Shown: positions 13,001-29,649 of the stretch, one piece after another | Position numbering within the stretch: the first letter of the stretch is position 1 | How the letters are laid out: every line of letters starts with the position of its first letter | Source: Myxococcales bacterium | GTDB lineage: Bacteria; Myxococcota_A; UBA9042; JABWCM01; BTVJ01 | Assembly (NCBI GenBank): GCA_045863395.1 | Contig: BTVJ01000005.1 | Coordinates: 128,001-192,000, forward strand | Direction: 5' to 3' | Length of the DNA stretch: 64,000 bases | Translations under genes and position numbers: made by a program | The notes under the pieces: model-generated | The model's input: only the letters and a program-made list of their open reading frames with translations | What the model was told of the DNA's origin: nothing | Databases searched by the model: none

Positions 13001-15849
13001 AGGAGCTTGATTGCATCCAGCACTGCGCTCACCGTGAAGCCCCGCAGGCTGACGAGGCGATCGAGCTCCTCCACGCCCGCCCGCTCGTCACCGGCGAGGA
13101 GCAGCTCCTCGGCGATGTGGGCCATGGCCTCCTGGTCGCCGGGCCGGTCGACCAGGATCTCGCGATAGACGCGGATGGCCTCCACGCGCAGACCCAGTGA
13201 GCGCAGCTGCTCCGCTGCCCGGGAGCGGGCGGACGTGCGGTTGCCCTGCAGCAGCACATAGTTGCGCGCCAGCTCTGGGACCTCGTCCCGGCGCCCCGCC
13301 TTGACGAGGGCGTCCGTGTACCGCGGGAAGAGGTTGTCCAGGTTGCGCCGGTTCTCGGCCACGAAGGCCGCCTCGAAGTGCCTCAGCGCCCTGGTGAGCT
13401 CGCTGGCCTCGTAATACTGTTGGGCCACGCGGACATGGGCGCCGGGCTTGTCGGGCTCCGCCTCCACCACCTGGGCAAACGCGCGCTCCGCGCGCTCGGT
13501 CTGGCGCAGCTTGAGCAACGCCACTCCCTGGTTGAAGGACACGGCCTGTCGCTCCGACGCGGAGGCCATCGCCAGGTCGTAGGCGCGCACGGCCAGATCC
13601 CAGAGCTGCGCGTTGAAGAGCTGGTCACCGAGCGCCCGCATCTCTCGTGGCTTGGCTCCGCCAGCGTCGAGGAAGCGCTCGAAGTGATGCCGTGAGCGCG
13701 CGATGTCGCCCCGCTTCGCGTACATCCTCGCCAGGCGGCGGTGGACCTCCGGGTCCTTGACGTCGTCGGCGCCGAGCGCCCCGACGACGCGGGCGGCCTC
13801 CGCCTCGTGGCCCTTGCCGATCAGGTACAGAGCCACCTTCTCTACGGCCGCACCCCTCTCTGGCGCCCGCTCCACGTAGCGCTGGAACGCGGTGATCGCC
13901 TGGTCGAGGCGCTTCGCCGCGACGTAGGCCTGGCCGAGCAGGAAGCTCGCCTCGGCGTCGGCCGGGTCCAGGCGGGCGATCTCCTCCTGAACGAGGACCT
14001 GGAGCTCCACCATCGTCGCCTGCGGGCGGATGCGCTGCGCGATGAGACGGGCTGCGGCGAGGCGATCCGGGGATCGCTCCAGCAGGGCGCGGAAGTAGAC
14101 TGCCGCCTTGTCTGGGTCCCGGCGCTTGCCCGACAGGAAGGCGGACCCCAGGAGCTGGAGCGCCTCGGCCGCCTCCGCGTCTCGGCCCGGGGGAGCCGCA
14201 GCCACCGCCTCCAGCAGCGGGACCCCGCGGTCCGCGTCACCGCGGTCCATGTACCGGCGCCCGACGGCGAGGCGGGCGCCGATGGGATCGGACGCGGACG
14301 CCATGAAGCGGTCCATGGTCTTGGTCTCGTTCGAGTGGTCATCGCGGGAGCGGTAGATGTCGGCCAGCGCGACGGACGCGCGCTGGAGCCCCGGGCGGGC
14401 CTCCAGCGCCCCCTGGAGCGCCACCACCGCCTTGTCGTGGAGCTTGAGGTCGGCGTAGAGGAGCCCAACCTCCTCATGCGCGATGGCGCGGTCCGGTGCG
14501 CGGCCGACGTAGGCCAGGAGCTCCTTGTCCCGCGCGTCGTCATGGCCCAGCTCGTGCTCCAGCCTCCCCACCTGGAGCAGGAGCGCGGGGTCTGCACCCG
14601 GGAGGGCCAGGGCGCGCCGGTAGAGGTCGATGGCCTCCTGCTGCTGCCCCAGGGACGCCAGGGCCTTGGCGGCGTCCTCGGCCGCTGCTCGGGTGCCGGC
14701 CAGCTCCACGAAGCTCAAGTAGAGGGGCACGAGCTTGTCGCGATCACCGACCCTCAGGTAGAGGCGGGCCAGGACGTTGCGAGGCTCCAGGTTGGTCGGT
14801 TCGAGTTCGATCGCCTCTTGGAGCGCCTCGATGGCGAGCTGGGGAGCCTGGAACTTGATGTAGAGGCGCGCCGCGGCCTCCCGAGCCTCCACCTGTGCGG
14901 CGGCGGGGAGCGTCGCGTAGTGGCGACCGAAGGCGGCCTTGGCGTCGTCGAGGCGGCGTAGCTTCAGGTAGAGCACCGCGAGGTCACCGAACAGCCCCTC
15001 CTGGGTCGGGTCCAGCTCGGCAGAGCGCCGGTACGCCTGCTCGGCTGGGTCGAACTTGAAGTTGGACTCGTAGAAGTTCGCCAGCTCGCGCAGCACCCGC
15101 GCGCTGCTGGCCTGGTCCACCCCCTTGCCCTTGAGGTACGTGTCGAGCTCGCGGGCGGCCTCGTCGGCCTGGCCGAGGAGGGTGTGCACGCGGCCCCGAC
15201 GAAAGGCCAGATCCACCGGGTCGGCAAACGGGGCGGCCTTGTCGTATGCGGCCAGGGCGTCGCGGTAGTAGCCGGCGTCATAGGCGGCATCGCCGGCCCC
15301 CAGGAAGGCAGCGGCGATGCGGGCCCGGTCGGCCTCGTCGGGAGCCCCCGCTGCCGCCAGGCGCCCAGCGTACCCGGACGCCTCCTTGTACGCCCCTCCC
15401 GCGAGCGCCTCGTCGATGGCCCCGCGAAGGGCGGCCGCGCGAAGGTCGCCGGGGTGCTCCGCATAGCGCGGGTCCAGCGCCTCGGCCGCCGCCACGTGCT
15501 CGGCCGCCTCCGCCGCCCGCCCACGGGCCAAGGCGTTGACGGCGAGCCAGTGGAGCGCGTCCACGCTGCTCGGAAGCAACGACGTCGCCTGGCGCAGCGA
15601 GGGCTCCGCCTCCTCGTGGCGCCCGGCCTGCTCCAAGGCGATGCCGAGCCGCAGCGCGGCCTCCCCGTCCCCCGGGGCCTGCGCGGCGGCGGCGCGAAGG
15701 GCCGGCTCGGTGGCCTCGATGGGACCATCGGGGAGCAGGTCGTCTCGAAGCAGGGCCTTGCCGCAGCCCGCGCTCGCCAGGAGGGCGAGGAGCACGACGC
15801 AGGCGGGTGCGTAGGAGGAGCGGAGCCGGCGGTTGAGTGTGGCGGTCAT
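10003..15849 (-). CDS. Giant TPR-repeat lipoprotein (~1,950 aa)
   Basis: Lipobox LASAG-C; TPR-like helical repeats throughout; C-terminal NNLAY...YLDTEGWVLYQLG...YWHLG repeats; alternative start 15900. Confidence 0.85.
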   Translation of the reverse strand: MTATLNRRLRSSYAPACVVLLALLASAGCGKALLRDDLLPDGPIEATEPALRAAAAQAPGDGEAALRLGIALEQAGRHEEAEPSLRQATSLLPSSVDALHWLAVNALARGRAAEAAEHVAAAEALDPRYAEHPGDLRAAALRGAIDEALAGGAYKEASGYAGRLAAAGAPDEADRARIAAAFLGAGDAAYDAGYYRDALAAYDKAAPFADPVDLAFRRGRVHTLLGQADEAARELDTYLKGKGVDQASSARVLRELANFYESNFKFDPAEQAYRRSAELDPTQEGLFGDLAVLYLKLRRLDDAKAAFGRHYATLPAAAQVEAREAAARLYIKFQAPQLAIEALQEAIELEPTNLEPRNVLARLYLRVGDRDKLVPLYLSFVELAGTRAAAEDAAKALASLGQQQEAIDLYRRALALPGADPALLLQVGRLEHELGHDDARDKELLAYVGRAPDRAIAHEEVGLLYADLKLHDKAVVALQGALEARPGLQRASVALADIYRSRDDHSNETKTMDRFMASASDPIGARLAVGRRYMDRGDADRGVPLLEAVAAAPPGRDAEAAEALQLLGSAFLSGKRRDPDKAAVYFRALLERSPDRLAAARLIAQRIRPQATMVELQVLVQEEIARLDPADAEASFLLGQAYVAAKRLDQAITAFQRYVERAPERGAAVEKVALYLIGKGHEAEAARVVGALGADDVKDPEVHRRLARMYAKRGDIARSRHHFERFLDAGGAKPREMRALGDQLFNAQLWDLAVRAYDLAMASASERQAVSFNQGVALLKLRQTERAERAFAQVVEAEPDKPGAHVRVAQQYYEASELTRALRHFEAAFVAENRRNLDNLFPRYTDALVKAGRRDEVPELARNYVLLQGNRTSARSRAAEQLRSLGLRVEAIRVYREILVDRPGDQEAMAHIAEELLLAGDERAGVEELDRLVSLRGFTVSAVLDAIKLLERRGLHGRARALIDQALSKGRKDPWLHFARAELSAREGNMKAAHDDVVLALGLSKDPKEVLDRARALYDRTERIDLAIDLTRRAIAQAPQEPAYQLQLVDLLLEVGQSAEADQAAFRYLRLDELGAAKLADVYQRHDELDKAITHYRKALEQPLVGASGDALQQLARTLLFSGEGGDLDAAVAQYLVTARDMEQAYWDAALAYAEASRFDQMVRYLIEADRVRPRSEIRRIIALRLLADGKTDEGRRWLELYLHAPPQREAGAAGMPPGQDGQDDPASRAIAASQAYRAAGLAADAVAVLAGALESVGDDPTLLVALVALLLDEGDAPRALAELRAFLARGGLLDDATARVLGAHVLAAGRVPEAIEVLAEALEQRMMPAASVLLLELTLRAGDVSSSRTQIERLRERVIPGDPGIALRLAAACFDGGYSDLAEPLARSVALSGDPRTWGPGLGLAVKLLLLRGDRSGVDALYDAVLASQDNRLDALRGLASVMFEVQQWPQAARALEGWARIDPASPEPWRQMVAVHLLGGDDEALWRGVEGLLERSPDPDEELGRLADQMARRLRWDLAAEARRRLLVKDRGSADLAFKVADAALRSGRVDLSRESFERFIELSGRKPTAYRHVARELLAAGRAQDAALVLDRGLEVEPDAWRLHQLRGLGRLRAGDEPGARAAFVEAARLAPLPELALMEAAYQYLEGIDMSAALALDLADLSLARRADLPGALLVRGAALLGLGRGDDAERAMARFDALGYNLPDGHLEYAKRALLAGHIELARAHFDRVAQLSDDRSAVLQGIASVIREVNDRTDVALLPEQRAALRALSLGYVSELLRSDPSAAWFVTLKSDVLESSGDVPGAVAVYREALARWPADSALHNNLAYLFARRGENLEEALALVRRARALDPSQNVYYLDTEGWVLYQLGRYEEAADLIRASIRQMEEKLGSSLSESYWHLGQVLEKLGDGEGAILNYAVAMRVDPSGRYGTQARADHDRLAAR

Positions 15850-15915
15850 CGCGTCCTCGAACAACGGGCTCGGGTGATCGGTTCCCGGCAGGGCCACCAT
15901 GGCTCAGCCTCTACG

Positions 15916-17466
15916 TCAGCTCATCAGCGCGCGCGCGACCGCGTCGGCGAGGCCGTCGGCGGTGTGCGGCGAGGCCTCCGCGTGGACCGGGAGGCCGAGC
16001 GCGCGCGCGGCCGTCGAGGTCGTCGGGCCGATGGTCGCGATCCGGACCCGCCCGAGCAGGTCGAGGGCCTCCTCGCCCCCACCGAGGCGCCCCACGAGAT
16101 TGCGCACCGCCGACGGGCTCGTCAACGTGACGGCGTGGAGGGCACCACTTCGCAGGGCCTGTAGTGCGGGCCCCGGGTCCGGCTCCTCCGGGCAGACGGT
16201 GCGGTAGGCGGTGACCACGTCGATGAAGCCCCCCAGGGCCGCGATGCCCGCCGGGATGACGTCGCGTCCCTCGGCGGCGCGGGGCATGAGGAAGCGGCCG
16301 CTCGCCAGGCCCGCGCGTCCGAGCGCCTGCTCCAGGGCCGAGAGGACCCCCTCGGCGGTCGCCTCCTCGGGAACGAGATCGGCGACGATCCCGTGAGCTT
16401 CCAGGCGCTCTGCGGTGGCCGGACCCACTGCGCAGATGCAGACCGGCGCAAGAAGCCGGGCATCTCCGTTGAGCGCCCGAATCCGCTCGAACAAGGCATC
16501 GACGGCGTTGGCGCTGGTCAGGATGACCCACCCATAGGTGTCGAGACGCGCCAGGGCGCTGTCGAGGGGCGCCGTCGACTCCGGCGGCGCGAAGGCGAGC
16601 ACGGGCAGGACGAGCACGTCGGCCCCCAGCGCCTCGAGGGCCTCGACGAGGCCCCCGGCCTGCTCTCGGGCCCTCGTCACCAGCACCCGCGCCCCGTGCA
16701 GTGGCCGTCGATCGAACCATGCGATCTCGCTGCGGAGCGCCACCACGTCCCCGACGACCAGCGTGGCGGGAGACCCGATGGCGGCCGCCGCCGCGCGAGC
16801 CGCGATGTCGGCGAGGGTGCCGGTCACAGTGCGCTGGGCCGCCGTCGTGCCCCACTGGACCACCGCCGCGGGGGTCGCTGGAGCGCGCCCTCCGGCGACC
16901 ATGGCCGCCGCGATGGCGGCCAGGCGCCGCGCGCCCATCAGCACGACCAGCGTGTCGGCCGCCGTCGCCATGCGCTCCCAGCGCACCCGATCCATGGGGC
17001 GGGCCGGGTCCTCGTGGCCGGTGACCACCAGCAGCGAGGAGGACGCGCGGCGATCCGTCACGGGGATCCCCGCATAGGCCGGCACGGCGAGGGCGGCGCT
17101 CGGCCCGGGGACCACCTCGAAGGGTACGCCGTGGGCAGCCAGCCACGCGGCCTCCTCGCCGCCCCGCCCGAAGAGGAAGGGGTCGCCCCCCTTCAGTCTC
17201 ACGACGAGGCGCGCGCGGCGGGCCCGGTCGACGAGCAGCTCGTTGATCTGCTGCTGGGAGAGGGCGCGCGCCCCGGCCCACTTGCCGGCGTAGATGCGCT
17301 CGGCCTCCGGTCGCGCGGCATCGAGCAGCGCCGCGGACACCAGGTGATCGTGGACCACCACGTCGGCGGCCCGGAGGCGCTCCATTCCACGGACCGTGAT
17401 GAGCCCGGGGTCACCAGGACCAGCCCCCACGAGGGAGACCAGCCCGACGGCGCGTGCCTCACGCAC
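15916..17466 (-). CDS. cobA: Fused uroporphyrinogen-III C-methyltransferase / uroporphyrinogen-III synthase (CobA-HemD)
   Basis: LVGAGPGDPGLITVRG, RLKGGDPFLFGRGGEE, then HemD region VLVTRAREQA, TSANAV, TSPSAV, IGPTT. Confidence 0.95.
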   Translation of the reverse strand: MREARAVGLVSLVGAGPGDPGLITVRGMERLRAADVVVHDHLVSAALLDAARPEAERIYAGKWAGARALSQQQINELLVDRARRARLVVRLKGGDPFLFGRGGEEAAWLAAHGVPFEVVPGPSAALAVPAYAGIPVTDRRASSSLLVVTGHEDPARPMDRVRWERMATAADTLVVLMGARRLAAIAAAMVAGGRAPATPAAVVQWGTTAAQRTVTGTLADIAARAAAAAIGSPATLVVGDVVALRSEIAWFDRRPLHGARVLVTRAREQAGGLVEALEALGADVLVLPVLAFAPPESTAPLDSALARLDTYGWVILTSANAVDALFERIRALNGDARLLAPVCICAVGPATAERLEAHGIVADLVPEEATAEGVLSALEQALGRAGLASGRFLMPRAAEGRDVIPAGIAALGGFIDVVTAYRTVCPEEPDPGPALQALRSGALHAVTLTSPSAVRNLVGRLGGGEEALDLLGRVRIATIGPTTSTAARALGLPVHAEASPHTADGLADAVARALMS

Positions 17467-18403
17467 CCGTGCCCTCGGGGGTCACGCCGATGGCGGCGAG
17501 GATGTCGAGCCCCCCGTCGGCGAGCAGCCGGTCGGCGAGGCGCAGGCCGATGACGGCCGCGTCCTCGGGCGCCCCGGAGTCCTCGCCGCGCACGATGCGG
17601 GACCCGTCCGGGGCGGCGATCAGCGCTCGCAGCCGGAGCGCGCCGCCCTCGACCACCGCGAACCCGGCGACAGGGGTGACGCAGCTCCCGCCGAGGCGCC
17701 GCATCACGGCGCGCTCCGCTGTGACCGCCGCGGCGGTGGCCGGGTGATCGAGGCGCGTCAGCCCCTCGCGCAGGGCGGCGTGGTCCTCGCGTGTCTCCAG
17801 CGCGAGCGCCCCCTGCCCGATGGCCGGGAGCATCTCGTCGGCGCTGAGCACCGCCCCCTTGACGTCGTGCAGCCCGAGGCGCCGCAGCCCGGCGTGGGCC
17901 AGGATGGTCGCGTCGAAGTCGCCCCGATCCACCTTGCCGAGGCGCGTCTCCACGTTGCCGCGGAGCTGCTCGACGCGCAGATCTGGCCGCAGCGCCAGGA
18001 TCTGCGAGCGGCGCCGCAGGCTGGACGAGCCGACGAGGGAGCCCGCGGGCACCTCGGCGAGAGGGCGACCGTCGCGGGTGATGAGCACATCGAAGGGGCT
18101 CTCCCGCTCCAGCGTCGCGGTGAGCACGAAGCCGGGCGGCAGGACCCCCGGGACGTCTTTCATGCTGTGGACCGCCAGGTCGACCTCGCCGAGGGCGAGA
18201 GCCTCTTCAATCTCTTTGATGAACAGCCCCTTGCCGCCGATCTCCGACAGGCTCCGGTCCTGGATGCGATCCCCGCTCGTCTTGATGATCTGCAGGTCGA
18301 CCCGCCCGGCGATGCCCGTGTCGACGAGCAGCTTCGCGATGTGCCGCGACTGCACGAGCGCCAGGTTGCTGCCCCGTGTCCCGATCCTGACCACTGGAAT
18401 CAT
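17459..18403 (-). CDS. hemC: Hydroxymethylbilane synthase
   Basis: RIGTRGSNLAL, GGKGLFIKEIE, AVHSMKDVP, SSLRR, LRGNVETRL, LGGSC. Confidence 0.97.
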   Translation of the reverse strand: MIPVVRIGTRGSNLALVQSRHIAKLLVDTGIAGRVDLQIIKTSGDRIQDRSLSEIGGKGLFIKEIEEALALGEVDLAVHSMKDVPGVLPPGFVLTATLERESPFDVLITRDGRPLAEVPAGSLVGSSSLRRRSQILALRPDLRVEQLRGNVETRLGKVDRGDFDATILAHAGLRRLGLHDVKGAVLSADEMLPAIGQGALALETREDHAALREGLTRLDHPATAAAVTAERAVMRRLGGSCVTPVAGFAVVEGGALRLRALIAAPDGSRIVRGEDSGAPEDAAVIGLRLADRLLADGGLDILAAIGVTPEGTGA

Positions 18404-18414
18404 CGGTCCTCCGC

Positions 18415-19755
18415 CTACGCGCTGTCGCGTGCCTGTTCGCTCCCGCGCTCGCCTGCCGCAGGCTCGGGCGCATGTGGCTCCTCGGCTGGCAGCGCGAACA
18501 GATCGCGCACGGCCTCCACCAGCCTCTGCCCGTCCACACCGCTGCTCTCGCGCTTGAGGCGCACGGTGGGCTCGTGCAGGAACTTGTTCACCATGGCCAT
18601 GGTCATGCGCTCGACCACCGCCCGCTGCTCGTCGGTCAAGGCGCGCAGCGTCTTGTCACTGCGCTCCAGCTCCGCGTCTCGAATCGCCATCACCCGCTTG
18701 CGCAGCGAGGCGATGGTCGGGGTGATCGTCGCCTCGGCAAGCCAGCGGGCGTGGCGCTGGACCTCGTCACGCACGACGAGGATCGCCTTGTCCACCTCGC
18801 GCTGCCGGTCCTCCTGGTTCTTCTTGGTGATCTGCTCGAGGTCGTCCACGTTGTAGAGGTAGACGTTCTCGATCTCGCCCACCCGCGGGTCCACGTCGCG
18901 CGGGACCGCGATGTCCACGAGGAACAGCGCCCGGTACTTGCGGCGCCGCATGACCTTGGCGACCAGGTCGGGCTCGATGACGAACAGCGGGCTGCCCGTC
19001 GACGAGATCACGATGTCCACGTGCTCCAGCAGAAACGGCAGGTCGCCGAAGGCCCGCGCCTGCCAGCCGTGCGCCTCCGCCAGCTTCACCGCGCGCTCGT
19101 AGCTCCGGTTCGCGATGAACACGTTGGAGGCGCCGTTCTCCTCCAGGTTCTGCGCAGCCAGCTCGGCCATCTCGCCCGCGCCGACGACCAGCACCGAGCA
19201 CTTGTCCAGGCTCTCGAAGATGCGCCGCGCCAGCTCGACGGCGACCCAGCTCACGCTGATGGCCCCCGCGGCCACCTGCGTCTCGGTGCGGACGCGCTTG
19301 GCAGCCCGGAACGCCCGCTCGAAGAGGGCGCGCAGCTCGGGGCCGACGGTGCCTGCGTCGGAGGAGCCCGCGAACGCCTCCTTGACCTGCCCCAGGATCT
19401 GGGGCTCGCCTACCACGAGGCTCTCCAGGCTGGACGCCACCCGGAAGAGGTGCTCCACCCCGTCGCCGCCAAGGATCGTGTAGGTGTGGCGGGCGAGGCG
19501 CTCGGTGGGGATCCGCTTCTCGCGGGCGTAGAAGTCGAACACCGCGGTCGCCAGGTCCTCCAGGCGGACACCGGGCCGTGCCACGGCATAGGTCTCGACG
19601 CGGTTGCAGGTGGACACCACCACTGCCTCGCCGACCTCCGGGCACTCGCAGAGGCGGTGCAGGACGCCGGGTAGATCGTCCCGCGCGATGGCCATCTGCT
19701 CGCGCACGTCGACCGGCGCAGACTTGTGGCTGAGCCCGAAGCACAGGAGCTTCAT
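18415..19755 (-). CDS. hemA: Glutamyl-tRNA reductase
   Basis: GLSHKSAPVDVRE, STCNRVE, SLVVGEPQILGQVK, GAGEM, DIAVPRD. Confidence 0.97.
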   Translation of the reverse strand: MKLLCFGLSHKSAPVDVREQMAIARDDLPGVLHRLCECPEVGEAVVVSTCNRVETYAVARPGVRLEDLATAVFDFYAREKRIPTERLARHTYTILGGDGVEHLFRVASSLESLVVGEPQILGQVKEAFAGSSDAGTVGPELRALFERAFRAAKRVRTETQVAAGAISVSWVAVELARRIFESLDKCSVLVVGAGEMAELAAQNLEENGASNVFIANRSYERAVKLAEAHGWQARAFGDLPFLLEHVDIVISSTGSPLFVIEPDLVAKVMRRRKYRALFLVDIAVPRDVDPRVGEIENVYLYNVDDLEQITKKNQEDRQREVDKAILVVRDEVQRHARWLAEATITPTIASLRKRVMAIRDAELERSDKTLRALTDEQRAVVERMTMAMVNKFLHEPTVRLKRESSGVDGQRLVEAVRDLFALPAEEPHAPEPAAGERGSEQARDSA

Positions 19756-19765
19756 CGTCCCACCC

Positions 19766-20569
19766 TCAAGCCATGGTCCGCGACATGTAGATCAAGACGA
19801 CCGACAAGGAGCTCAGGAAGCCGATGATCGTCAGCACGGCGGCGCGTCGCCCCTTCCACCCGATCGTGAGCCTGGAATAGAGGAGCAGACCATAGATGAC
19901 CCATGCGGCGATGGCCAGCACGTATTGGGGCGGGATACCGTGGTGCGCCATCTTTCCGACCCAGACCGCGCCGAGCACGATGCCGACGGTATAGACGGGG
20001 AACCCGATGAGGATCGCCCGGTGGTTGGCCCGCTCCAGGGACCCGAGGGGCGGGATGCGGCCCCGGGACGACACCAGCAGCTTGTGTTTCTTGAGGTTGT
20101 GGTCCTGCACGAGGTACAGGATGCTCACGACGAAGGCGACGGTGAAGGCGAGCACGCCGATGATGCTCGCCCCGATGTGGAGCGGCGTCACGAGCCCGAT
20201 GACCTGGTCGCGCACGGTCCCAGCCTGGCGGGCCCCCTCCCACACGCTGTAGAGCACGACCGTCACCACGGGTGTCAGGAAGGCGCCGCCCATGTTCCCG
20301 GGGCGCTTGAGGCTGGTCACGATGTACGCGCCCACGGCGATGAAGGACGCGACCAGGAGCAGATCCGTCGGGAGCCCCTCTGCGCCCCCTGCCCCCAGGA
20401 CGAAGCGCGCGATCAGCGCGCACCCGTGCAGCAACCATGCGCCGATCATGGTCGCCCTGCCGAAGCGGAGCGCGACCTCACGAAACCGGAGCAGGTACGC
20501 CATGTAGAAGACGGTGCTGTTCAGGTACCCGAGGCATGTCGCGATGATCAGCCACCCGACGGGGCTCAT
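19766..20569 (-). CDS. ccsA: CcsA/HemX-like cytochrome c assembly family membrane protein
   Basis: ~8 TM helices, conserved His (PLHIG), YLVQDHNLK, GAVW, GWKGRRAA; lies directly upstream of hemA. Confidence 0.8.
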   Translation of the reverse strand: MSPVGWLIIATCLGYLNSTVFYMAYLLRFREVALRFGRATMIGAWLLHGCALIARFVLGAGGAEGLPTDLLLVASFIAVGAYIVTSLKRPGNMGGAFLTPVVTVVLYSVWEGARQAGTVRDQVIGLVTPLHIGASIIGVLAFTVAFVVSILYLVQDHNLKKHKLLVSSRGRIPPLGSLERANHRAILIGFPVYTVGIVLGAVWVGKMAHHGIPPQYVLAIAAWVIYGLLLYSRLTIGWKGRRAAVLTIIGFLSSLSVVLIYMSRTMA

Positions 20570-21237
20570 GGGCTCCCTCCGTCCAGCAGGGACGTGACCC
20601 CCAGAGACGCCGCGGTGACCGCGGGGCCCAGCGTGTCGGCCAGCAGCCGATCCAGCGCAGCCTCGTCGCGGCGCCGACACGCCTCGAAGAGCGCGTCGCC
20701 CACCAGCCGCTCGTAGGCCTGGCGCGGGGGCGGGCCGTCCTGGCGCAGGCGCTCGCGCGCGGCGGCCACCACCTCCAGCGCGGTCGCCACCTCGGGCCCG
20801 ATCAGGCCGTCGAGCCACTCCTTGAGGGCGTGCGAGAAGCCTGGGCACGCGCCGCCGGTGGACAGCGCCACCGTGAGACGCCCGCGGCGCAGCACCGCTG
20901 GGACGTGAAAGTCGCTGGCATCGGGGTCATCGGCCACGTTCACCAGCACTCCGCGCGCCCTCGCCGCGCTCACCACGGCGGCGTTCGTGTCGCGGCGGTC
21001 CGTGGCGGCGATGGCCGCAAAGGCCCCGTCCAGGTGGTGCGGCTCGAAGCGGGCCTCGACGAGGTCGGCCCTGGCCGCTGCCCAGGTCCTGACCTCGTCC
21101 GACGGCGCGGCCGCGACGATGCGCAGCGCCGCCCCCGTCCCCTCGAGCAGGCGGAGCTTTCGTCCGGCCACACGACCGCCGCCGACGACGACGATCACCC
21201 TGCCCGCCACGCTCATGTTCATCGGATATCGCAGCAT
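20566..21237 (-). CDS. Precorrin-2 dehydrogenase / sirohydrochlorin ferrochelatase (CysG N-terminal / SirC)
   Basis: YPMNM..VVVGGGRVAGRK, AATD, NVADDP..DFHVPA, STGGACP; C-terminal part of track ORF 20566..22689. Confidence 0.9.
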   Translation of the reverse strand: MLRYPMNMSVAGRVIVVVGGGRVAGRKLRLLEGTGAALRIVAAAPSDEVRTWAAARADLVEARFEPHHLDGAFAAIAATDRRDTNAAVVSAARARGVLVNVADDPDASDFHVPAVLRRGRLTVALSTGGACPGFSHALKEWLDGLIGPEVATALEVVAAARERLRQDGPPPRQAYERLVGDALFEACRRRDEAALDRLLADTLGPAVTAASLGVTSLLDGGSP

Positions 21238-21262
21238 GCGCTCCTCGCCCCACGGGCGCCTG

Positions 21263-21308: not shown

Positions 21309-22427
21309 TCACGAGATCTTCCCTCGACTGACGCTCACGTTGAGGACCATGCCGATGCCGATGAAGGTGGTCAGCACGCTCGACCCCCCGTAGCTCAACA
21401 GCGGCAGGGTCACGCCGACCACCGGTAGGAGCCCGATGACCATGCCGATGTTCACGAAAGCGCCACTGACGATCATGGTCGCGACGCCGGCGGCAAGCAT
21501 GGCGCCGAACCTCTCCCTCGCCGCGCGGGCGACGCGGAACATCCACACGGCAAAGGCGAAGAACACGAGGGTCAGCCCCGCGCAGCCAACGAACCCGTGC
21601 TCCTCCGCGAACGTGGCGATGATGAAGTCGTTGTGCATCTCCGGCAGGTACTTGAGCCGGCTCCGTGCGCCTCCCTTGATGCCCTTCCCCATCACCTTGC
21701 CGCTCCCCACCGCCCACAGGGCCTGCTCGGGCTGGAGCTTCTTGTCCAGGACCTTCTTCCCCTCCGGGTCCAGCTTGAACTGGTCTTCGTTGAGCCACAG
21801 GCGCACCCGATCCTTCTGGTAGTCGTGGATCACGTCGAACTGCCAGGCGAGAGGGAGCACGAGCATGACGACGGCGAGCACGGTCAGGAGGCTGCGCATG
21901 CGGATGCCCTCGAACAGCAGCATGCACGCGGCGACGATGACGAGCATGAGGGTCGTACCGAGGTCCGGCTGCAGAAGGACCAGCGCCGAGGGAACGCCGA
22001 TCATGATCGTAGGCACGATGAGCTCGCGGAGGGTGAACTTGCCCGGCTTCTTGTTGCGCTGGATCCATCGGGCCAGCGCGAGGATCATGCCGATCTTCAT
22101 GAACTCGCTGGGCTGGATCACCATGTTGCCTATCTCGATCCACCGCTGGCTGTTGTTCACCTCGCGGCCGAAGAGCCGGGTCGCCAGCAGCAGCGCCATG
22201 ACGGCGAAGTAGACGAGATACGACAGGCGCTCGAGGACGCGCAGGTCCACCGCGGCGATCAGGAACGCGACGATCACGCCCAGCAGCATCCAGATGACCT
22301 GGGACTTGTGGAACTGGTCGCCCGAGTAGTAGTCGCTGCTGGCGAGGTTGACGAGCCCGAGGGCTGACACGCCCAGCAGCAACAGCAGCCAGAGCCAGTT
22401 GGAGCGGATGGCACGGAGGAACTGCAT
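21309..22427 (-). CDS. rodA: Rod shape-determining SEDS glycosyltransferase RodA
   Basis: SQRWI..IQPSEFMK, LQPDLGT, YQKDR, LPEMHNDFI, VGVTLPLLSYGGSS; follows mrdA. Confidence 0.95.
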   Translation of the reverse strand: MQFLRAIRSNWLWLLLLLGVSALGLVNLASSDYYSGDQFHKSQVIWMLLGVIVAFLIAAVDLRVLERLSYLVYFAVMALLLATRLFGREVNNSQRWIEIGNMVIQPSEFMKIGMILALARWIQRNKKPGKFTLRELIVPTIMIGVPSALVLLQPDLGTTLMLVIVAACMLLFEGIRMRSLLTVLAVVMLVLPLAWQFDVIHDYQKDRVRLWLNEDQFKLDPEGKKVLDKKLQPEQALWAVGSGKVMGKGIKGGARSRLKYLPEMHNDFIIATFAEEHGFVGCAGLTLVFFAFAVWMFRVARAARERFGAMLAAGVATMIVSGAFVNIGMVIGLLPVVGVTLPLLSYGGSSVLTTFIGIGMVLNVSVSRGKIS

Positions 22428-22429
22428 CG

Positions 22430-24724
22430 CTAGGGCAGCTCCTCTTCGCCCATGGGCCTCGGGACGTCCCGCCGTGCAGGGGCGGCGTCGGGGGCAGCGC
22501 TGGGAGCGTCGGCGCCCGCTCCGGCCCTGCGGGCGTCGTGGGAGCCCGCGCGGGGCACCACCTTCCCGAGGCCGCGACGGAAATACTGATCGATGACGTG
22601 CTGGGCGACCGGGGCGGCCATCTGACCGCCCGACCCGCCGTGCTCCACGAACACGACGACCACGATCTGGGGATCCTCGATGGGCGCATAGGCCGCGAAC
22701 CACGCGTGGTCCTGCTTCAGCCACTCGGCGACCTCCTCCGATGCGCCCTTGCGGCTCTGCGGCGCCTCGGCCGTGCCGGTCTTCCCAGCAAAGATCACGT
22801 TCTCCAGGCGGGCGCTCCGCGCCGTCCCGCGGTCAGGATCGTTGACCACGCGCTCCAGACCTCGGCGCACGGCGGTGAGGTGCTGTTCGCTGAAGGGGAG
22901 TGTGCGCTCCACCTCCGGCTGGAAGGTCCGCGTCACGTTGCCACCCGCGTCCTCCAGGCGCTTGACGATCCGCGCGCGCATCACCTTGCCGCCGTTGGCG
23001 ATCGCCGCGTAGACGCGCGCCATCTGGAGCGGCGTGGTCAGGAGCGACCCTTGCCCCACCGACACGGACAACGTGAAGCCGGGCTGCCAGCCGAGGGGCT
23101 GCTGCCGGTGCCACTCCTTGGTCGGCACGCGCCCGACGCGCTCGTTCAGCTCGATCCCCGTGGGCTCGCCCAGCCGGAACACCTCGTGGGAGTAACGCGA
23201 CAGCACGTCCATGCCCATGAGCTCGCCCACCTGGTAGTAGTAGACGTCGCACGAGAGCATCAGCGCCTCCTCCAGGGCGATGTCGCCACCGTGCCCGCCT
23301 CGCGCGTGGCACCGGAACCGTCGGCCGCCAAACGTGTAGAAGCCGGGGCAGGTGGTGTGCCACGACGGCGCCACGACCCCGGTGTCCAACGCCGCCAGGG
23401 AGGTGACGACCTTGAAGATGGAGCCCGGCGCGTAGGCTGTGAGCGCCTTGTCGTAGAGCGGCCCGTAGGGGTTCTCGTCCACCTCGCGCTTCGCCTCACG
23501 GGTCAGCCGCCCCGACCAGATGTTGGGGTCGAAGGAGGGCTTGGAGTACAGGGCGAGCACCTCGCCAGTCGCGGCCTCCATGACGACCACTGCACCGCTC
23601 CGGTGGTACCGCATGGCGTCCTTGATGATGCCCTGGAGCTCCACGTCGAGCGTCAGTACGACCGTCTGCCCGGGCACCGCCTTGGTGCCGCCGAGCCCGC
23701 GGAAGAGCTTCTTCAGCAGCTCCGGATCCTGGGAGGCACCCCGCGAGTCGCGGACGGAGACCTCCTCGCCGCTCTGCCCGCGCAGGGCCTCCTCCATGGC
23801 GCGCTCGATGCCGGTGCGCCCGATCCAGTCGCCCGGCCGGTAGGCGCCGGGCCACTTCTCCATGTCCTCCCGGTTGACCTCGTTCATGTAGCCGAGGACG
23901 TGGCTGAGCCTGTAGCGGTATGGGTACTCGCGGCGCATCTCCGTCACGAGGCGCACGCCCGGCAGCCGGTGCAGGTTGGCGGTGATGATCGCCTGCTCGC
24001 TGTTGAAGCGGCGCTTGCACATCGGGCACTGCAGGTTCGTGGTCGGGCGCTCCAGCGTCGCCCCGTCGACCGGGCACCGCGCCGCGTGCTCCCCGGGCGG
24101 CAACCACGACGAGCCGCAGGCGGAGCAGTGGAGCGCGTGGCCGGCGCCACCCGGCTTGAGCGGGCGCTTGTCGTTCGGGCACTTCTGGGCACCCGCCGGG
24201 AGCTCGTGCCACACCCCACCGCACTCGGGGCACCACAGGTGGGGGACCTCGTCGACGAGCTTGAGCTCGGCCGAGTCGAACGGGCAGGAGCCGGCCACCA
24301 GGTCCCGCGCCACGGAGATGGGGTTGAAGCGCTTCTCCTTGACCGACCCCTCCTCGATGCGCTGCTGGAGCGACGCATACTCTGTGTTGGTCAGCCCGAG
24401 GAGCTCCCGGAGCAGGGGCAGGGTCTTCTCAGGCTCCTTGAGATAGTGGGGGGTGATGGTCAGGTGGTGGGCGTCGATGTTGCGGGCCACGACCCGACCC
24501 TGGCGATCCTTGATGACGCCGCGGCGCGCAGGGACCCGTTCGTCCGAGATGTAGTTGATCTGGGCGAGGCGCTCATACTCGCCCCCCTTGACGACCTGGA
24601 GCTGGAAGAAGCGCCCGACGAGCACCAGCGCCAGGATCCCAGAGAACGCGACGGCCCACAGGTACTGCACGCCGTACTCGGTGCGCCCCGATCCGTCGAT
24701 GTCCAGGTCCAGCCGATCCAGCAT
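22430..24724 (-). CDS. mrdA: Penicillin-binding protein 2 with Cys-rich insertion
   Basis: TM anchor, RRGVIKDRQG, REYP, GRTGIE, SIFK (SxxK), SCD, KTGT; mre operon context. Confidence 0.95.
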   Translation of the reverse strand: MLDRLDLDIDGSGRTEYGVQYLWAVAFSGILALVLVGRFFQLQVVKGGEYERLAQINYISDERVPARRGVIKDRQGRVVARNIDAHHLTITPHYLKEPEKTLPLLRELLGLTNTEYASLQQRIEEGSVKEKRFNPISVARDLVAGSCPFDSAELKLVDEVPHLWCPECGGVWHELPAGAQKCPNDKRPLKPGGAGHALHCSACGSSWLPPGEHAARCPVDGATLERPTTNLQCPMCKRRFNSEQAIITANLHRLPGVRLVTEMRREYPYRYRLSHVLGYMNEVNREDMEKWPGAYRPGDWIGRTGIERAMEEALRGQSGEEVSVRDSRGASQDPELLKKLFRGLGGTKAVPGQTVVLTLDVELQGIIKDAMRYHRSGAVVVMEAATGEVLALYSKPSFDPNIWSGRLTREAKREVDENPYGPLYDKALTAYAPGSIFKVVTSLAALDTGVVAPSWHTTCPGFYTFGGRRFRCHARGGHGGDIALEEALMLSCDVYYYQVGELMGMDVLSRYSHEVFRLGEPTGIELNERVGRVPTKEWHRQQPLGWQPGFTLSVSVGQGSLLTTPLQMARVYAAIANGGKVMRARIVKRLEDAGGNVTRTFQPEVERTLPFSEQHLTAVRRGLERVVNDPDRGTARSARLENVIFAGKTGTAEAPQSRKGASEEVAEWLKQDHAWFAAYAPIEDPQIVVVVFVEHGGSGGQMAAPVAQHVIDQYFRRGLGKVVPRAGSHDARRAGAGADAPSAAPDAAPARRDVPRPMGEEELP

Positions 24725-24751: not shown

Positions 24752-25267
24752 TCAGGGGAAGAAGACGTTGTCCTTCCGGCGGCGCGAGAACACGGTGTCA
24801 GCGAAGCCGCAGAGCCAGAAGACCATCGGCGCGAAGGGCGCCGAGATCAGGGCCTGGGGCACGATCATCGACAGAATCGACCCATAGGTGTCAAACCCCC
24901 GGTCGAAGATCATGGTGAGCAACAGGAACAGCACCCCCGCCACGAGCACGCCCAGAAAGGCCAGGATCATCTGTGACACGACGCCACGGAGCGTCACCTT
25001 GTGAGCGAGGAACCGGAACAGGTAGTACACGAGCACGGAGATCTCCGTGAACATCCCGACCGGCGAGCCAAGCGCGAAGCCGTCCTTCATGAGGCCGATG
25101 GCGAAGGCCACGAGGGCCCCGGTCAGTCCACCGATGTTCACCGCGAGCCAGATCACGACCAGGATCGCCAGATCCGGGGCATAGAGGCTCAGGTTGAGCT
25201 GGTGGAGCAGGGGCGACTCCAGCCCGAGGAGCAGGTAGGTCAACACCAGGATCAGCAGCACCCTCAT
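24752..25267 (-). CDS. mreD: Rod shape-determining protein MreD
   Basis: Hydrophobic ~171 aa (MRVLLILV..PDL..GLMKD) between mreC and mrdA; ATGA overlap with mreC. Confidence 0.85.
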   Translation of the reverse strand: MRVLLILVLTYLLLGLESPLLHQLNLSLYAPDLAILVVIWLAVNIGGLTGALVAFAIGLMKDGFALGSPVGMFTEISVLVYYLFRFLAHKVTLRGVVSQMILAFLGVLVAGVLFLLLTMIFDRGFDTYGSILSMIVPQALISAPFAPMVFWLCGFADTVFSRRRKDNVFFP

Positions 25268-26136
25268 CGCTTCTCCTGAGGTCGGTCGGCGGTGGGGTCG
25301 GGGCTGCGGTCGACGACGATCAGCACCTCCTCCAGGGTCGAGAAGTTGACCGCGGGCGTGACGTCGTAGACGTAGTAGAGCCCATCCTGGTGTTCCGAGT
25401 CCGACGCGATGTAGCCCACCTCGAGACCAGGGGGGAACACCTTGTCGTGGCCGCTGGTGACCACCGTGTCGTCCTTCTCCACGGGCTGGCTCTTGTGGAG
25501 GAAGCTGAACTTGCCGCCGTACTCGTTGCGGTCCCCCCGGCCGGTGAGGACGCCGGTGACCCCTTTGCCGGCGATGGTCACGTTGATCTGGCTCCGGGCG
25601 TCCACGGCGAGCATCACGTCGCTCCAACCGGCACCCGTGTTGGAGATGCGGCCTACGACCCCCTCGTGCGTGATCACGGGCATCCCCTCGGTCACGTGGT
25701 CGGAGGCGCCCGTGTCGAGGGCCACCTTGAGCACCCGGTAGTTGGGCGAGATGTCCCGTCCGATGACCCGCGCCGCGATGGTGCGCACGTCCGTGCGGGC
25801 CTTCTTGAACTCCAGGAGCTTCTTGAGGCGCTCGTTCTCGAGGAGCAGGGTCTTCGCTCGCAGCGCCTCGCCGAGCAGCACCTCGTGCTCGCGCAGGAGG
25901 CGCTGGTTCTCCTCGGCGAGCCCCACCAGCCAGACGTAGTCGGACCACACGCCCTCGACGGCGCGGAGCACCTCGTGCGCGACGGCCTGGACGGGCGAGG
26001 TCAGCACGAGCAGCCCGGTCTCGATGGGCGAGTTGCCGGGCCGCCGCTTCCCGTGAAAGTAGAGGGAGAACAGCGGCAGCGTCAGCACCAGGAAGGTGAG
26101 CGCGATGGCGCGGTAGCGGCGGAGGGTGTCTCTCAT
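25264..26136 (-). CDS. mreC: Rod shape-determining protein MreC
   Basis: Coiled coil ENERLKKLL, ARVIGR, GMPVI..GVVGRI, VVTSG..FPPGL. Confidence 0.93.
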   Translation of the reverse strand: MRDTLRRYRAIALTFLVLTLPLFSLYFHGKRRPGNSPIETGLLVLTSPVQAVAHEVLRAVEGVWSDYVWLVGLAEENQRLLREHEVLLGEALRAKTLLLENERLKKLLEFKKARTDVRTIAARVIGRDISPNYRVLKVALDTGASDHVTEGMPVITHEGVVGRISNTGAGWSDVMLAVDARSQINVTIAGKGVTGVLTGRGDRNEYGGKFSFLHKSQPVEKDDTVVTSGHDKVFPPGLEVGYIASDSEHQDGLYYVYDVTPAVNFSTLEEVLIVVDRSPDPTADRPQEKR

Positions 26137-26168: not shown

Positions 26169-27269
<1,101 letters not shown>

Positions 27270-27461: not shown

Positions 27462-27490
27462 TTGACCTTTGGGGGCGGGTCGTCTAGTAT
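27462..27490 (+). promoter_or_regulatory. sigma70-like promoter
   Basis: TTGACC-N17-TAGTAT upstream of the ATG at 27568. Confidence 0.5.
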
Positions 27491-27567
27491 CTGCCCCTTC
27501 CGGAGCCGGGGACTGCCCGAAGCTCGAAAAACATCAACGATTTCAGACATTTAGGAGCGAACGGGCC

Positions 27568-29649
27568 ATGCTCGACCTCCTGCGCAAGCACTCCCGCTCC
27601 ACGATCATCTACGTGCTGTTCGGCATCATCATCGCCGTGTTCGTGTTCACGTTCAACACGACCGGCAGCGGTGGGGGCGGCGGCTGCGGCGGAGGCGTGG
27701 ACTCCACCACCTTGGCGCACGTCGGCAAGGAGAGCATCGACAACGCGACCTTCGACATGGCGCTCCTGATGGCCCAGGACCCGCCCCGCCCCGGGCGTCG
27801 GGACGCGCGGTCCCTGCAGCAGGAGTTCCTCTACAAGGCGACCCGCTTCGTGGCGGTGCCGCCGGACGTCAGGTTCGCGGGGTACGTGCGTCCGGACCCG
27901 AGCCCCATCAAGGCCGAGAAGGTCATGCACGACGTGATCGAGACGTGGCTCGTCAGCCAGAAGGCCAAAGAGATGGGCCTCCGGGTCACCGACGAGGAGC
28001 TCGCGCGCCGCGTGGTCCAGGAGAGCTGGCGCAACCCGGACACCGGCAAGATCGACCCGGCCACCTACGACAACTTCGTCCGCTACGGGCTGCGCACGAC
28101 CAAGGCGCGCTTCGAGGACTTCATGCGGCGGGAGATCCTGCGCGAGAAGATGATCGCCGCGCTGACCGCCCACGTGAAGGAGTCACCCGCGACGATCGAC
28201 TGGTACGTGTCCCAGATGAGCGACAAGGTGAACCTGGAGTACGTGGAGCTGGACGCGGGCACGCTTGCACCCCTGGTGACGGTGGCCGACGCCGAGGTCA
28301 CCCAGTGGCTCGCGACCAATGAGGCCAAGGCCAAGGAGTGGTACGACCAGCACCGCAGCGAGTTCGACAAGCCGGAGCGCGTGAGCCTCCACGGCATCTT
28401 CAAGAAGGCGCCGCTGCGTGTGCTGATCGACCGCCAGGAGGACGCCGCCAAGAAGGCCGAGATGGAGACCCAGCGGGGCACCGCGCAGGCGGCCGCCGAG
28501 ATGCTGCTCGCGCAGCTCCGGCTGGGCGAGCAGGGCATGGCGCCCGGACCAGCGCAGGTCCCAGCCCCCCAGGGTGAGCCGGAGGCGGCTCCCGAGGCGG
28601 CCGCGGAGGAGGCTCCGGCCGCGGAGGAGGCTCCGGCCGCGGAGGAGGCTCCGGCCGCGGAGCCCGCAGCGGAGGTGGGAGACGCCCCCCCTGCCGGCGA
28701 GGCCGCCGAGCAGCCCGTCGAGGCGCCGGTCCCCAGCCGCGCGGAGGCCGAGGCGGCGCCCACCGAGGCGCCCGCAGCGGTCACCTTCGAGGCCCTCGCC
28801 GAGAAGGAGTCCGATCACGTCGAGAGCAAGTCGAAGGGCGGAGCCCTGGAGGTCGAGAGGTCCCGCACGGAGCTGGCCAACTGGCCCTTTGGCCCGGCGG
28901 TGGCCGAGGCAGCCTTCACGCTGGACAAAGGCAAGACGAGCGACGTGCTGGAGGTCGACGGAGGCTTCTGGATCATCCGGGTGAACGCGAAGCTCCCGGC
29001 AGAGAGCAAGACCTTTGAGCAGGCGAAGGCCGACATCGCCCGCCGCCTCCTACAGGAGGAGCGCGCCGCCAAGAAGATCGAGGAGGTCGGCAAGGAGCTG
29101 CTCACGCTGGCGAAGGCCAGCACCGACAAGCCGCTTGCGGAGATCGTCGCTGCATGGAACACCGCCAACCCCGGGCCCGAGAAGGACGGCGAGCCCCAGA
29201 AGCTCCTGTCCGCGGCAGAGACGGGTCCCTTTGCGCGCATGGAGCCAGGCTCCATCCCGCGGGCCTTCGACACGTTCGGCAACATCGTGGGCATCGGCAA
29301 GAGCCCGGAGCTGGTCAAGGACGCGTTCACGCTGACCGAAGCCGCCCCCGTCCCGGACCGCCTCTTCAGCATCGAGGGGTCGGACCGCAAGCTCGTCGTG
29401 CGCTTCAAGGAGCGCGTCGAGCCGACCGCGGAGGAGCTTGCGACCCAGAAGCAGCAGGTGGCCGAGCAGCTCACGCAGTTCAGGAAGATCCAGACCTGGC
29501 AGGCGTGGTACCGGGCGACCCTCGAGGAGGCCATGAAGTCGGAGACCGTGGAGCTCGAGAGCGCCTGGCTGTCGTTGCTGGCGCAGGAGCGCAAGGCCTA
29601 CGAGGACGCCATGGCCCGGTCCAACCCGCTGGCGGCGCAGGGGGGCTGA
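27568..29649 (+). CDS. PpiD/SurA-like membrane-anchored periplasmic chaperone with parvulin-type domain
   Basis: MLDLLRKH..IIYVLFGIIIAVFVF anchor, SurA-N (AKEMGLRVTDEEL), parvulin-like FEALAEKESD..KGG..EAAFTL..GFWIIRV. Confidence 0.8.
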   Translation: MLDLLRKHSRSTIIYVLFGIIIAVFVFTFNTTGSGGGGGCGGGVDSTTLAHVGKESIDNATFDMALLMAQDPPRPGRRDARSLQQEFLYKATRFVAVPPDVRFAGYVRPDPSPIKAEKVMHDVIETWLVSQKAKEMGLRVTDEELARRVVQESWRNPDTGKIDPATYDNFVRYGLRTTKARFEDFMRREILREKMIAALTAHVKESPATIDWYVSQMSDKVNLEYVELDAGTLAPLVTVADAEVTQWLATNEAKAKEWYDQHRSEFDKPERVSLHGIFKKAPLRVLIDRQEDAAKKAEMETQRGTAQAAAEMLLAQLRLGEQGMAPGPAQVPAPQGEPEAAPEAAAEEAPAAEEAPAAEEAPAAEPAAEVGDAPPAGEAAEQPVEAPVPSRAEAEAAPTEAPAAVTFEALAEKESDHVESKSKGGALEVERSRTELANWPFGPAVAEAAFTLDKGKTSDVLEVDGGFWIIRVNAKLPAESKTFEQAKADIARRLLQEERAAKKIEEVGKELLTLAKASTDKPLAEIVAAWNTANPGPEKDGEPQKLLSAAETGPFARMEPGSIPRAFDTFGNIVGIGKSPELVKDAFTLTEAAPVPDRLFSIEGSDRKLVVRFKERVEPTAEELATQKQQVAEQLTQFRKIQTWQAWYRATLEEAMKSETVELESAWLSLLAQERKAYEDAMARSNPLAAQGG
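28603..28662 (+). repeat. In-frame 18-bp tandem repeat, 3 copies plus a partial (AEEAPA)
   Basis: GCGGAGGAGGCTCCGGCC at 28603, 28621 and 28639, then GCGGAG. Confidence 0.9.

Follow-up and report, generated by a model that had tools for sequence, protein, structure and literature searches.

A cysteine-rich insert of predicted zinc ribbons in the PBP2 head of an uncultured class of Myxococcota

Introduction

The closest described relatives of the protein studied here are the MrdA (PBP2) proteins of the Rod complex (PDB 7kis, 8tj3 and 5lp5). In the H. pylori complex, MreC binds PBP2 between the head and the anchor (PMC5626683), and MreC has been proposed to promote PBP2 opening and activation (bioRxiv 10.1101/2022.11.07.515454, PMC12625996, PMC10449877). 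The head is the least resolved part of RodA-PBP2, and opening and activation by MreC is an active question (PMC10449877). Some penicillin-binding proteins (PBPs) also bind metal. Cys-liganded zinc has been measured in PBPs of A. baumannii, at a transpeptidase-domain site of PBP2 (PMC9974482), and of C. difficile, where SpoVD/PBP3 has a Cys-Cys-His-Cys form of the site and a redox role was speculated (PMC9334274).

Here we describe an MrdA encoded in a 64,000-nucleotide stretch of a Myxococcota contig (the window, to which all coordinates refer). It is like the Rod complex proteins in operon, membrane anchor, anchor/head/linker pedestal and transpeptidase motifs, but it differs by a 98-residue Cys/Asp insert in the head. 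A first-pass annotation, made from the DNA letters and their translations, had noted this insert and knew of no described PBP2 that carries it; likewise, we found no description of a ribbon insert in PBP2 in searches of the open-access literature. The main text of a 2025 survey of class B PBPs (PMC12516126) does not contain Myxococc, zinc, insertion or cysteine. Judged by its sequence, the protein is an otherwise ordinary MrdA, and with its insert a new variant of the cell-elongation machine.

Results and Discussion

An MrdA with an insert in its head

The operon lies inside the window in the order mreB-mreC-mreD-mrdA-rodA, all on the minus strand: mreB (26169..27191, TIGR00904), mreC (25264..26136, 290 aa), mreD (24752..25267, TIGR03426 at 37.2 bits, cut-off 34.85), mrdA (22430..24724) and rodA (21309..22427, TIGR02210 at 355.5 bits, cut-off 336.7). 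The mrdA product, penicillin-binding protein 2 (class B, 764 aa), scores 580.5 bits against TIGR03423 (cut-off 455), contains PF03717 and PF00905, and gives a model that resembles PBP2 structures. Its N-terminal membrane anchor is a hydrophobic stretch at about residues 19–41. As first reported, the transpeptidase motifs S435xxK438 (23411..23422, minus strand), S491xD493 and K648-T-G650 (22775..22783, minus strand) are all intact. The genes adjoining mrdA are its cognate rodA and mreBCD, so that by each test run (score, motifs, anchor and cognate genes) the protein is MrdA. An FtsI-like paralogue on contig C35 of the same genome is without the insert. Other genes in the window include a haem/sirohaem biosynthesis cluster on the same strand, close after rodA (15916-21253; sirC-like, ccsA-like, hemA, hemC and cobA-hemD, names based on open reading frames), a TPR-rich probable lipoprotein of 1965 aa (10003-15900) and, upstream of mreB, a membrane-anchored chaperone of SurA/PpiD type that has a long insertion rich in Ala, Glu and Pro (27469-29649).

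The insert comprises residues 144–241 (24002..24295, minus strand), between a head strand and the MreC-facing helix. Alignment with P. aeruginosa PBP2 stops at query residue 138 and restarts at 240, which are its own residues 135 and 139, and the E. coli MrdA alignment places the insert at L138-T139-E140, 98 residues net, between the head strand and the next helix. The first-pass claim of a Cys-rich insertion in the PBP2 pedestal is borne out by both gaps; its range of 24017..24286 placed C147 and C236 exactly but was a few residues too narrow. The nine Cys lie in six alternating CxxD and CxxC knuckles (CPFD/CPEC/CPND/CSAC/CPVD/CPMC), all on the minus strand: C147-P-F-D150 (knuckle 1, 24275..24286), C165-x-x-C168 (knuckle 2, 24221..24232), C182-P-N-D185 (knuckle 3, 24170..24181), C200-x-x-C203 (knuckle 4, 24116..24127), C217-P-V-D220 (knuckle 5, 24065..24076) and C233-x-x-C236 (knuckle 6, 24017..24028). 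This alternation, also noted at first reading, appeared in 0 of 200,000 shuffles of the insert, and six knuckles in any order in 11 of 200,000.

RNA-library contigs from two studies cover the insert and both junctions, and because they cross both junctions the insert is not an assembly artefact, although contigs of this kind are no proof of transcription. GC3 is 0.97 in the insert versus 0.92–0.93 across the remaining gene. These contigs and GC3 values, together with the class-wide matches described below, rule out a one-genome oddity, a misassembly or a recent transfer.

Distribution across the class and phylum

Sequence matches indicate a trait of the whole class whose states are three, one or zero ribbons. 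A profile of the insert and its flanks matched 103 of the 107 genomes of the host's uncultured Myxococcota class, 82 of them in the three-ribbon form (15 families) and 21 in the one-ribbon form (all 20 genomes of family f8, plus f17). Besides the window, 61 three-ribbon and 17 one-ribbon loci were read directly, and the rest were classed by match coordinates. Four class genomes gave no match: G006, which is 95% complete, has an insert-less MrdA, and the other three are 62–67% complete.

The taxonomic range, which the first-pass annotation had proposed to search, ends at the class in our sample. Among 401 phylum genomes, with 10 candidates scored per genome, 323 lay outside the class; 34 of these matched the profile, each on ribbons alone or flank alone, and we found no MrdA with the insert in the 323. 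None of three inspected ribbon-only matches was a PBP (one was seen only to residue 700), and five inspected flank-only matches were insert-less MrdAs. We found CxxC or CPxD in 0 of 81 insert-less MrdA heads, and the insert in 0 of 41 further MrdA heads reached in other classes (13 more were not reached, and one was without MrdA). A search of 1.84 billion representatives gave 212 matches, the best 150 of which included 22 MrdA and 11 other inspected proteins that were C2H2 arrays or tandem-ribbon proteins. The named database records carrying the insert are labelled Myxococcota MAGs, and a Bradymonadia-labelled and a Polyangia-labelled MrdA are without it. The insert would make a clean signature for this uncultured class.

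In a tree of 48 sequences built without the insert columns, the insert-bearing proteins and G006 formed one group (100/100) with a polytomy at its base, and the one-ribbon proteins formed one subgroup (100/99). The fragment P0022, whose shortness kept it out of the trees, seems to be a one-ribbon case of its own. With a polytomy at the class base, the tree fits one or three ribbons as the ancestral state, and either loss or original absence of the insert in G006.

MrdA heads depart from the ordinary form in other ways as well. In family f20 of another class (L225-L231, L236, L238), a two-Cys loop, probably a disulfide, lies just before the insert-site strand. G009 (L006 / L173) has a second head insertion of about 34 residues near query residue 100, and the MrdA of L086 has a long Cys-free head segment that is apparently duplicated.

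Ligand sets and metal

The knuckles are well conserved, in support of the first-pass view of a zinc-ribbon-like module at the MreC-binding head. All six are kept in 59 of 75 three-ribbon sequences (one duplicate pair included) and in 26 of 29 further ones, at about 45% overall identity. As in a zinc ribbon fold, two knuckles supply four ligands and the models are confident and all-beta; the set CCCD is found in 63/75 sequences at the site formed by knuckles 1 and 6, 61/75 at site 2-5 and 61/75 at site 3-4. Substitutions stay among ligands (CCDH, CCCH, CCCE), and CCDH at site 2-5 occurs in five sequences, all from f4, with Asp in knuckle 2 and His in knuckle 5. The presence of three Cys plus Asp per site and the exchange of Asp, His and Cys argue for a metal, and ribbon chemistry suggests zinc; each site is a predicted Cys3Asp metal site.

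The insert cysteines might instead form periplasmic disulfides without metal, as their extracytoplasmic location would allow. Of the 107 class genomes, 104 encode VKOR and none encodes DsbB. Given VKOR, the periplasm probably oxidises thiols and a periplasm without oxidative folding is ruled out; class cells appear to make disulfides. Decayed sites with exactly one Cys per partner knuckle (G013, G005, G017) may have turned into disulfides, which fits such a switch in those lineages. For the insert as a whole, however, we regard disulfides as very improbable. The Cys count is odd, with three and a conserved Asp per intact site, Asp, His and Cys interchange at the fourth ligand position, and eight kinase-like proteins of the same genome, presumably cytoplasmic, start with the same CxxC..CPxDG unit. 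As a separate observation, many of the class-wide VKOR matches lie in open frames of 800–900 aa, suggesting large fusion proteins.

It is even harder to credit that the insert is a near-neutral passenger that was acquired once and has stayed only because PBP2 would suffer if it unfolded. No region of MrdA is less conserved than the insert (36% identity versus 40–52% elsewhere), the 95%-complete G006 does without it and 21 genomes have one ribbon, all of which would suit a passenger. Yet clean deletion, though possible, is rare, the six knuckles persist at the frequencies and the overall identity given above, and MreC has changed at the modelled contact. We consider this reading extremely unlikely.

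Pairing of the knuckles

Paired losses and AlphaFold2 models favour a fully nested pairing, with knuckles 1-6 forming an outer site at the base, 2-5 a middle site and 3-4 a tip site. We assigned site 1-6 from co-loss, the model and one-ribbon relatives, site 2-5 from co-loss, and site 3-4 from co-loss and the model. The first Cys is lost in 12 of 75 sequences: from knuckles 2 and 5 in six, 1 and 6 in two, 1 alone in two, and 4 in two that retain a shifted Cys. Knuckles 2 and 5 lost it jointly in 6/6 cases, which fall in f3 and f10, two families forming separate clades. G003 and P0014 have lost knuckles 2 and 5 but have 1, 3, 4 and 6 intact, a combination that only full nesting fits. All 20 of 20 one-ribbon sequences have one CPxx and one CxxC/D knuckle, with flanks as in the three-ribbon form. 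The raw co-loss correlations (phi of 0.88 for 1-4, 0.80 for 2-5, 0.75 for 1-6 and 0.50 for 3-4) are noisy and muddied by lineages decaying several sites, and the 29 additional sequences held no further loss events. The nesting proposed in the first-pass annotation is supported for the outer site; its two inner ribbons, 2-3 and 4-5, are disfavoured by the joint losses of 2 and 5 and by the model, as is tandem pairing.

AlphaFold2 modelled the periplasmic part at pLDDT 92.2 and the isolated insert, nearly all beta, at 81.9; per 10-residue block across the insert, values were 82–93. On superposition, single ribbons of ~35 residues (NrdR, RNA-polymerase subunits) spanned model residues 6/7–105/106, desulforedoxin 22–89 and MqsA 41–87 (Z ≤3.4), which are the ranges predicted by sites 1-6, 2-5 and 3-4. 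This modelled pairing follows from where weak matches align (Z 3.4 at best, none reaching 5), and the sequences behind the model are also those of the co-loss table.

Look-alikes and a possible source

Likeness to named ribbons is weak. All 25 listed of 27 weak matches to Pfam ribbons (DZR PF12773, HypA, ADK_lid, Zn_ribbon_NUD and others) fell under the cut-off, with DZR PF12773 scoring 16.7 versus 27.3; the NCBIfam YgiT_finger barely passed (22.6 versus 20.2), over 20 residues only. The insert alone had 0 matches to PDB sequences, and no fold match reached Z 5 or E 0.001, which does not establish a new fold. The best whole-insert look-alikes, below significance, were the PriA Cys-rich region (Foldseek E 0.047, TM 0.27; structure-atlas TM 0.38–0.40) and the MetRS knuckle domain (Foldseek E 0.14); structure-atlas feature scores of 0.75–0.77 serve as leads only. 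The ribbon inserts of PriA and MetRS are nested zinc ribbons, and like the PBP2 insert they are placed into an enzyme as a single excursion. They differ in being cytoplasmic with two sites, and the likeness is below any homology bar.

A match in motif is found within Myxococcota. Eight open reading frames of the same genome, kinase-like by their glycine loop, begin with a CxxC..CPxDG unit. Such ribbons, at the N-termini of myxobacterial Ser/Thr kinases and in tandem-ribbon proteins, have the knuckle types and Cys3Asp set of the insert, but their units are contiguous and in tandem, whereas those of the PBP2 insert are nested and periplasmic. Tandem ribbon arrays are present elsewhere in the phylum, and kinase-type ribbons are a plausible donor pool for the insert. 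Two further proteins, P0038 and P0055, carry three CxxC..CPxDG ribbons in tandem behind a hydrophobic N-terminus and suggest that other ribbons of this type are exported.

Contact with MreC

We modelled PBP2 residues 55–372 and three Zn with one MreC beta-region (MreC 96–281). The model scored 0.80, and the best of three controls 0.00. Of 157 solved pairs 116 attain the mark it passed, as do 2 of 215 mismatched ones; the mark is roughly applicable to PBP2-MreC, and the pass may reflect resemblance to the H. pylori complex, which is solved. Runs shared at least 85% of contacts, partner pLDDT was at least 85, and no Zn contacts were reported from the model. MreC is docked against the head helix and the anchor, which matches H. 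pylori (PMC5626683). The modelled interface comprises anchor residues 62–65, helix 241–253 directly after the insert (23966..24004, minus strand), which is its centre, and insert-base residues 145, 156, 159, 228, 230 and 231; the inner part of the insert is free of it. The docking role that the first-pass annotation considered for the insert is thus supported for the base. MreC H230 (25447-25449) is predicted to contact PBP2 L231, S242, A245 and I246, and L231 is two residues from C233 of the base site.

The residue at this MreC position largely follows the insert, and His there is a signature of the class. Among 63 insert-bearing loci, 56 have it (42/48 three-ribbon and 14/15 one-ribbon; two unreadable loci dropped), a correlation that amounts to about one gain and a few changes on the tree and not to 63 independent cases. 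None of 59 insert-less loci has the His, and G006, one of the 59, has Leu; of 49 further out-of-class loci, one has it (six unreadable, and one genome also in the 59-locus set). The docking loop reads TSG-H in the host versus TSG-L or SSG-L in three solved MreCs. The His is kept in G065 despite full loss of the outer site; f17, one locus of f16 and five of f10 lack it, some of them with the outer site intact. A compensating V-to-A change at PBP2 245 was ruled out, as Ala occurs in 56 of 81 insert-less MrdAs. No Cys-rich or truncated operon partner was found, and MreC, MreD and RodA are of ordinary length in the zero-, one- and three-ribbon states.

A structural role is the reading we think probable. 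The insert would form one long finger of two strands that three structural Zn(Cys3Asp) sites clamp one after another, and it would grow from the head beside the MreC-binding helix. Its base ribbon would enlarge the surface on which the MreC beta-domain docks, the docking loop having moved from TSG-L/M/I to TSG-H along with the insert, and the module would tune MreC capture and opening of RodA-PBP2 in this class. The two outer ribbons, the outer two-thirds of the finger, would be a stiff, variable, sequence-tolerant and deletable strut rather than a specific ligand site. Only ligands and core residues are conserved in the insert. The inner part has 27% identity without Cys columns versus 34–35% for the outer part, net charge ranges from -7 to +8, and both inner ribbons are absent in f8, f17 and P0022; this low identity, variable charge and deletability suggest tolerance in the distal part.

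A purely passive strut leaves unexplained why 82 genomes in 15 families keep three ribbons. That retention, and about 71% conservation of R205 and R238, would suit distal ribbons acting as a specific docking arm for another partner, be it peptidoglycan, an envelope protein specific to the class, or a second protomer or coiled coil of MreC, and the inner part is free in a model that held one MreC beta-region only. We think this unlikely: the surface is poorly conserved, the charge varies, knuckles 1 and 2 are separated by insertions of up to about 29 residues in some sequences, the lineages named above have lost both inner ribbons, and MreC, MreD and RodA keep ordinary lengths in all three states. 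The class offers a natural zero-, one- and three-ribbon series, plus degenerate sites, at the MreC interface with a matching MreC residue, which makes graft-and-swap experiments straightforward.

The thiol-rich sites adjoin the modelled activation interface, and the proximity of H230 to C233 raises the idea of a zinc- or redox-gated switch. The base ribbon and the MreC His would form a metal-dependent clasp, possibly with H230 exchanging into the base site, so that zinc supply or thiol oxidation gates MreC-dependent activation of RodA-PBP2. An oxidising system is probably present, as VKOR indicates, and a redox role was speculated for the C. difficile site (PMC9334274). If so, cell elongation would have a built-in environmental switch, and the number of stacked ribbons would set its reach or sensitivity. 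Nevertheless, we judge this quite improbable. Insert sites are intact with and without haem-copper oxidases, in oxidase-poor f11 (3/13 genomes) as in oxidase-rich f7 (32/37) and f16 (8/8), so the metal- or redox-sensitive module of the first-pass annotation gains no positive evidence. In addition, each site already has four ligands, several lineages have lost whole sites, and the MreC His outlives loss of all outer-site Cys and is absent beside some intact sites.

A separate zinc motif in the transpeptidase domain

A further predicted zinc site lies in the transpeptidase domain, formed by C459, C472, H478 and C492 (23249..23350, minus strand), with C492 as the x of SxD. These residues are invariant in 39 of 39 aligned sequences, and the motif was matched to published PBP sites by motif and spacing. 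The host thus keeps the site of zinc-binding PBPs as Cys-Cys-His-Cys with the SxD cysteine, like SpoVD/PBP3. Those enzymes have one Zn beside the active site (PMC9974482, PMC9334274), whereas the host PBP2 has three more predicted in the pedestal; the C. difficile PBP2 pedestal insert is a helical cluster (PMC9334274), unlike the ribbon insert. Measured Cys-liganded zinc in extracytoplasmic PBPs is a precedent for zinc in the same enzyme type. If all sites are filled, this would be an unusually Cys-rich extracytoplasmic zinc module, with up to four Zn per PBP, in cells that apparently make disulfides. The first-pass annotation had missed this site, formed with the protein's other three Cys, as well as the three-, one- and zero-ribbon class trait and the MreC residue change. 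Several MrdAs of Desulfobacterota and Acidobacteriota also show Cys-containing transpeptidase motifs of a similar kind, a wider range than PMC9974482 gives.
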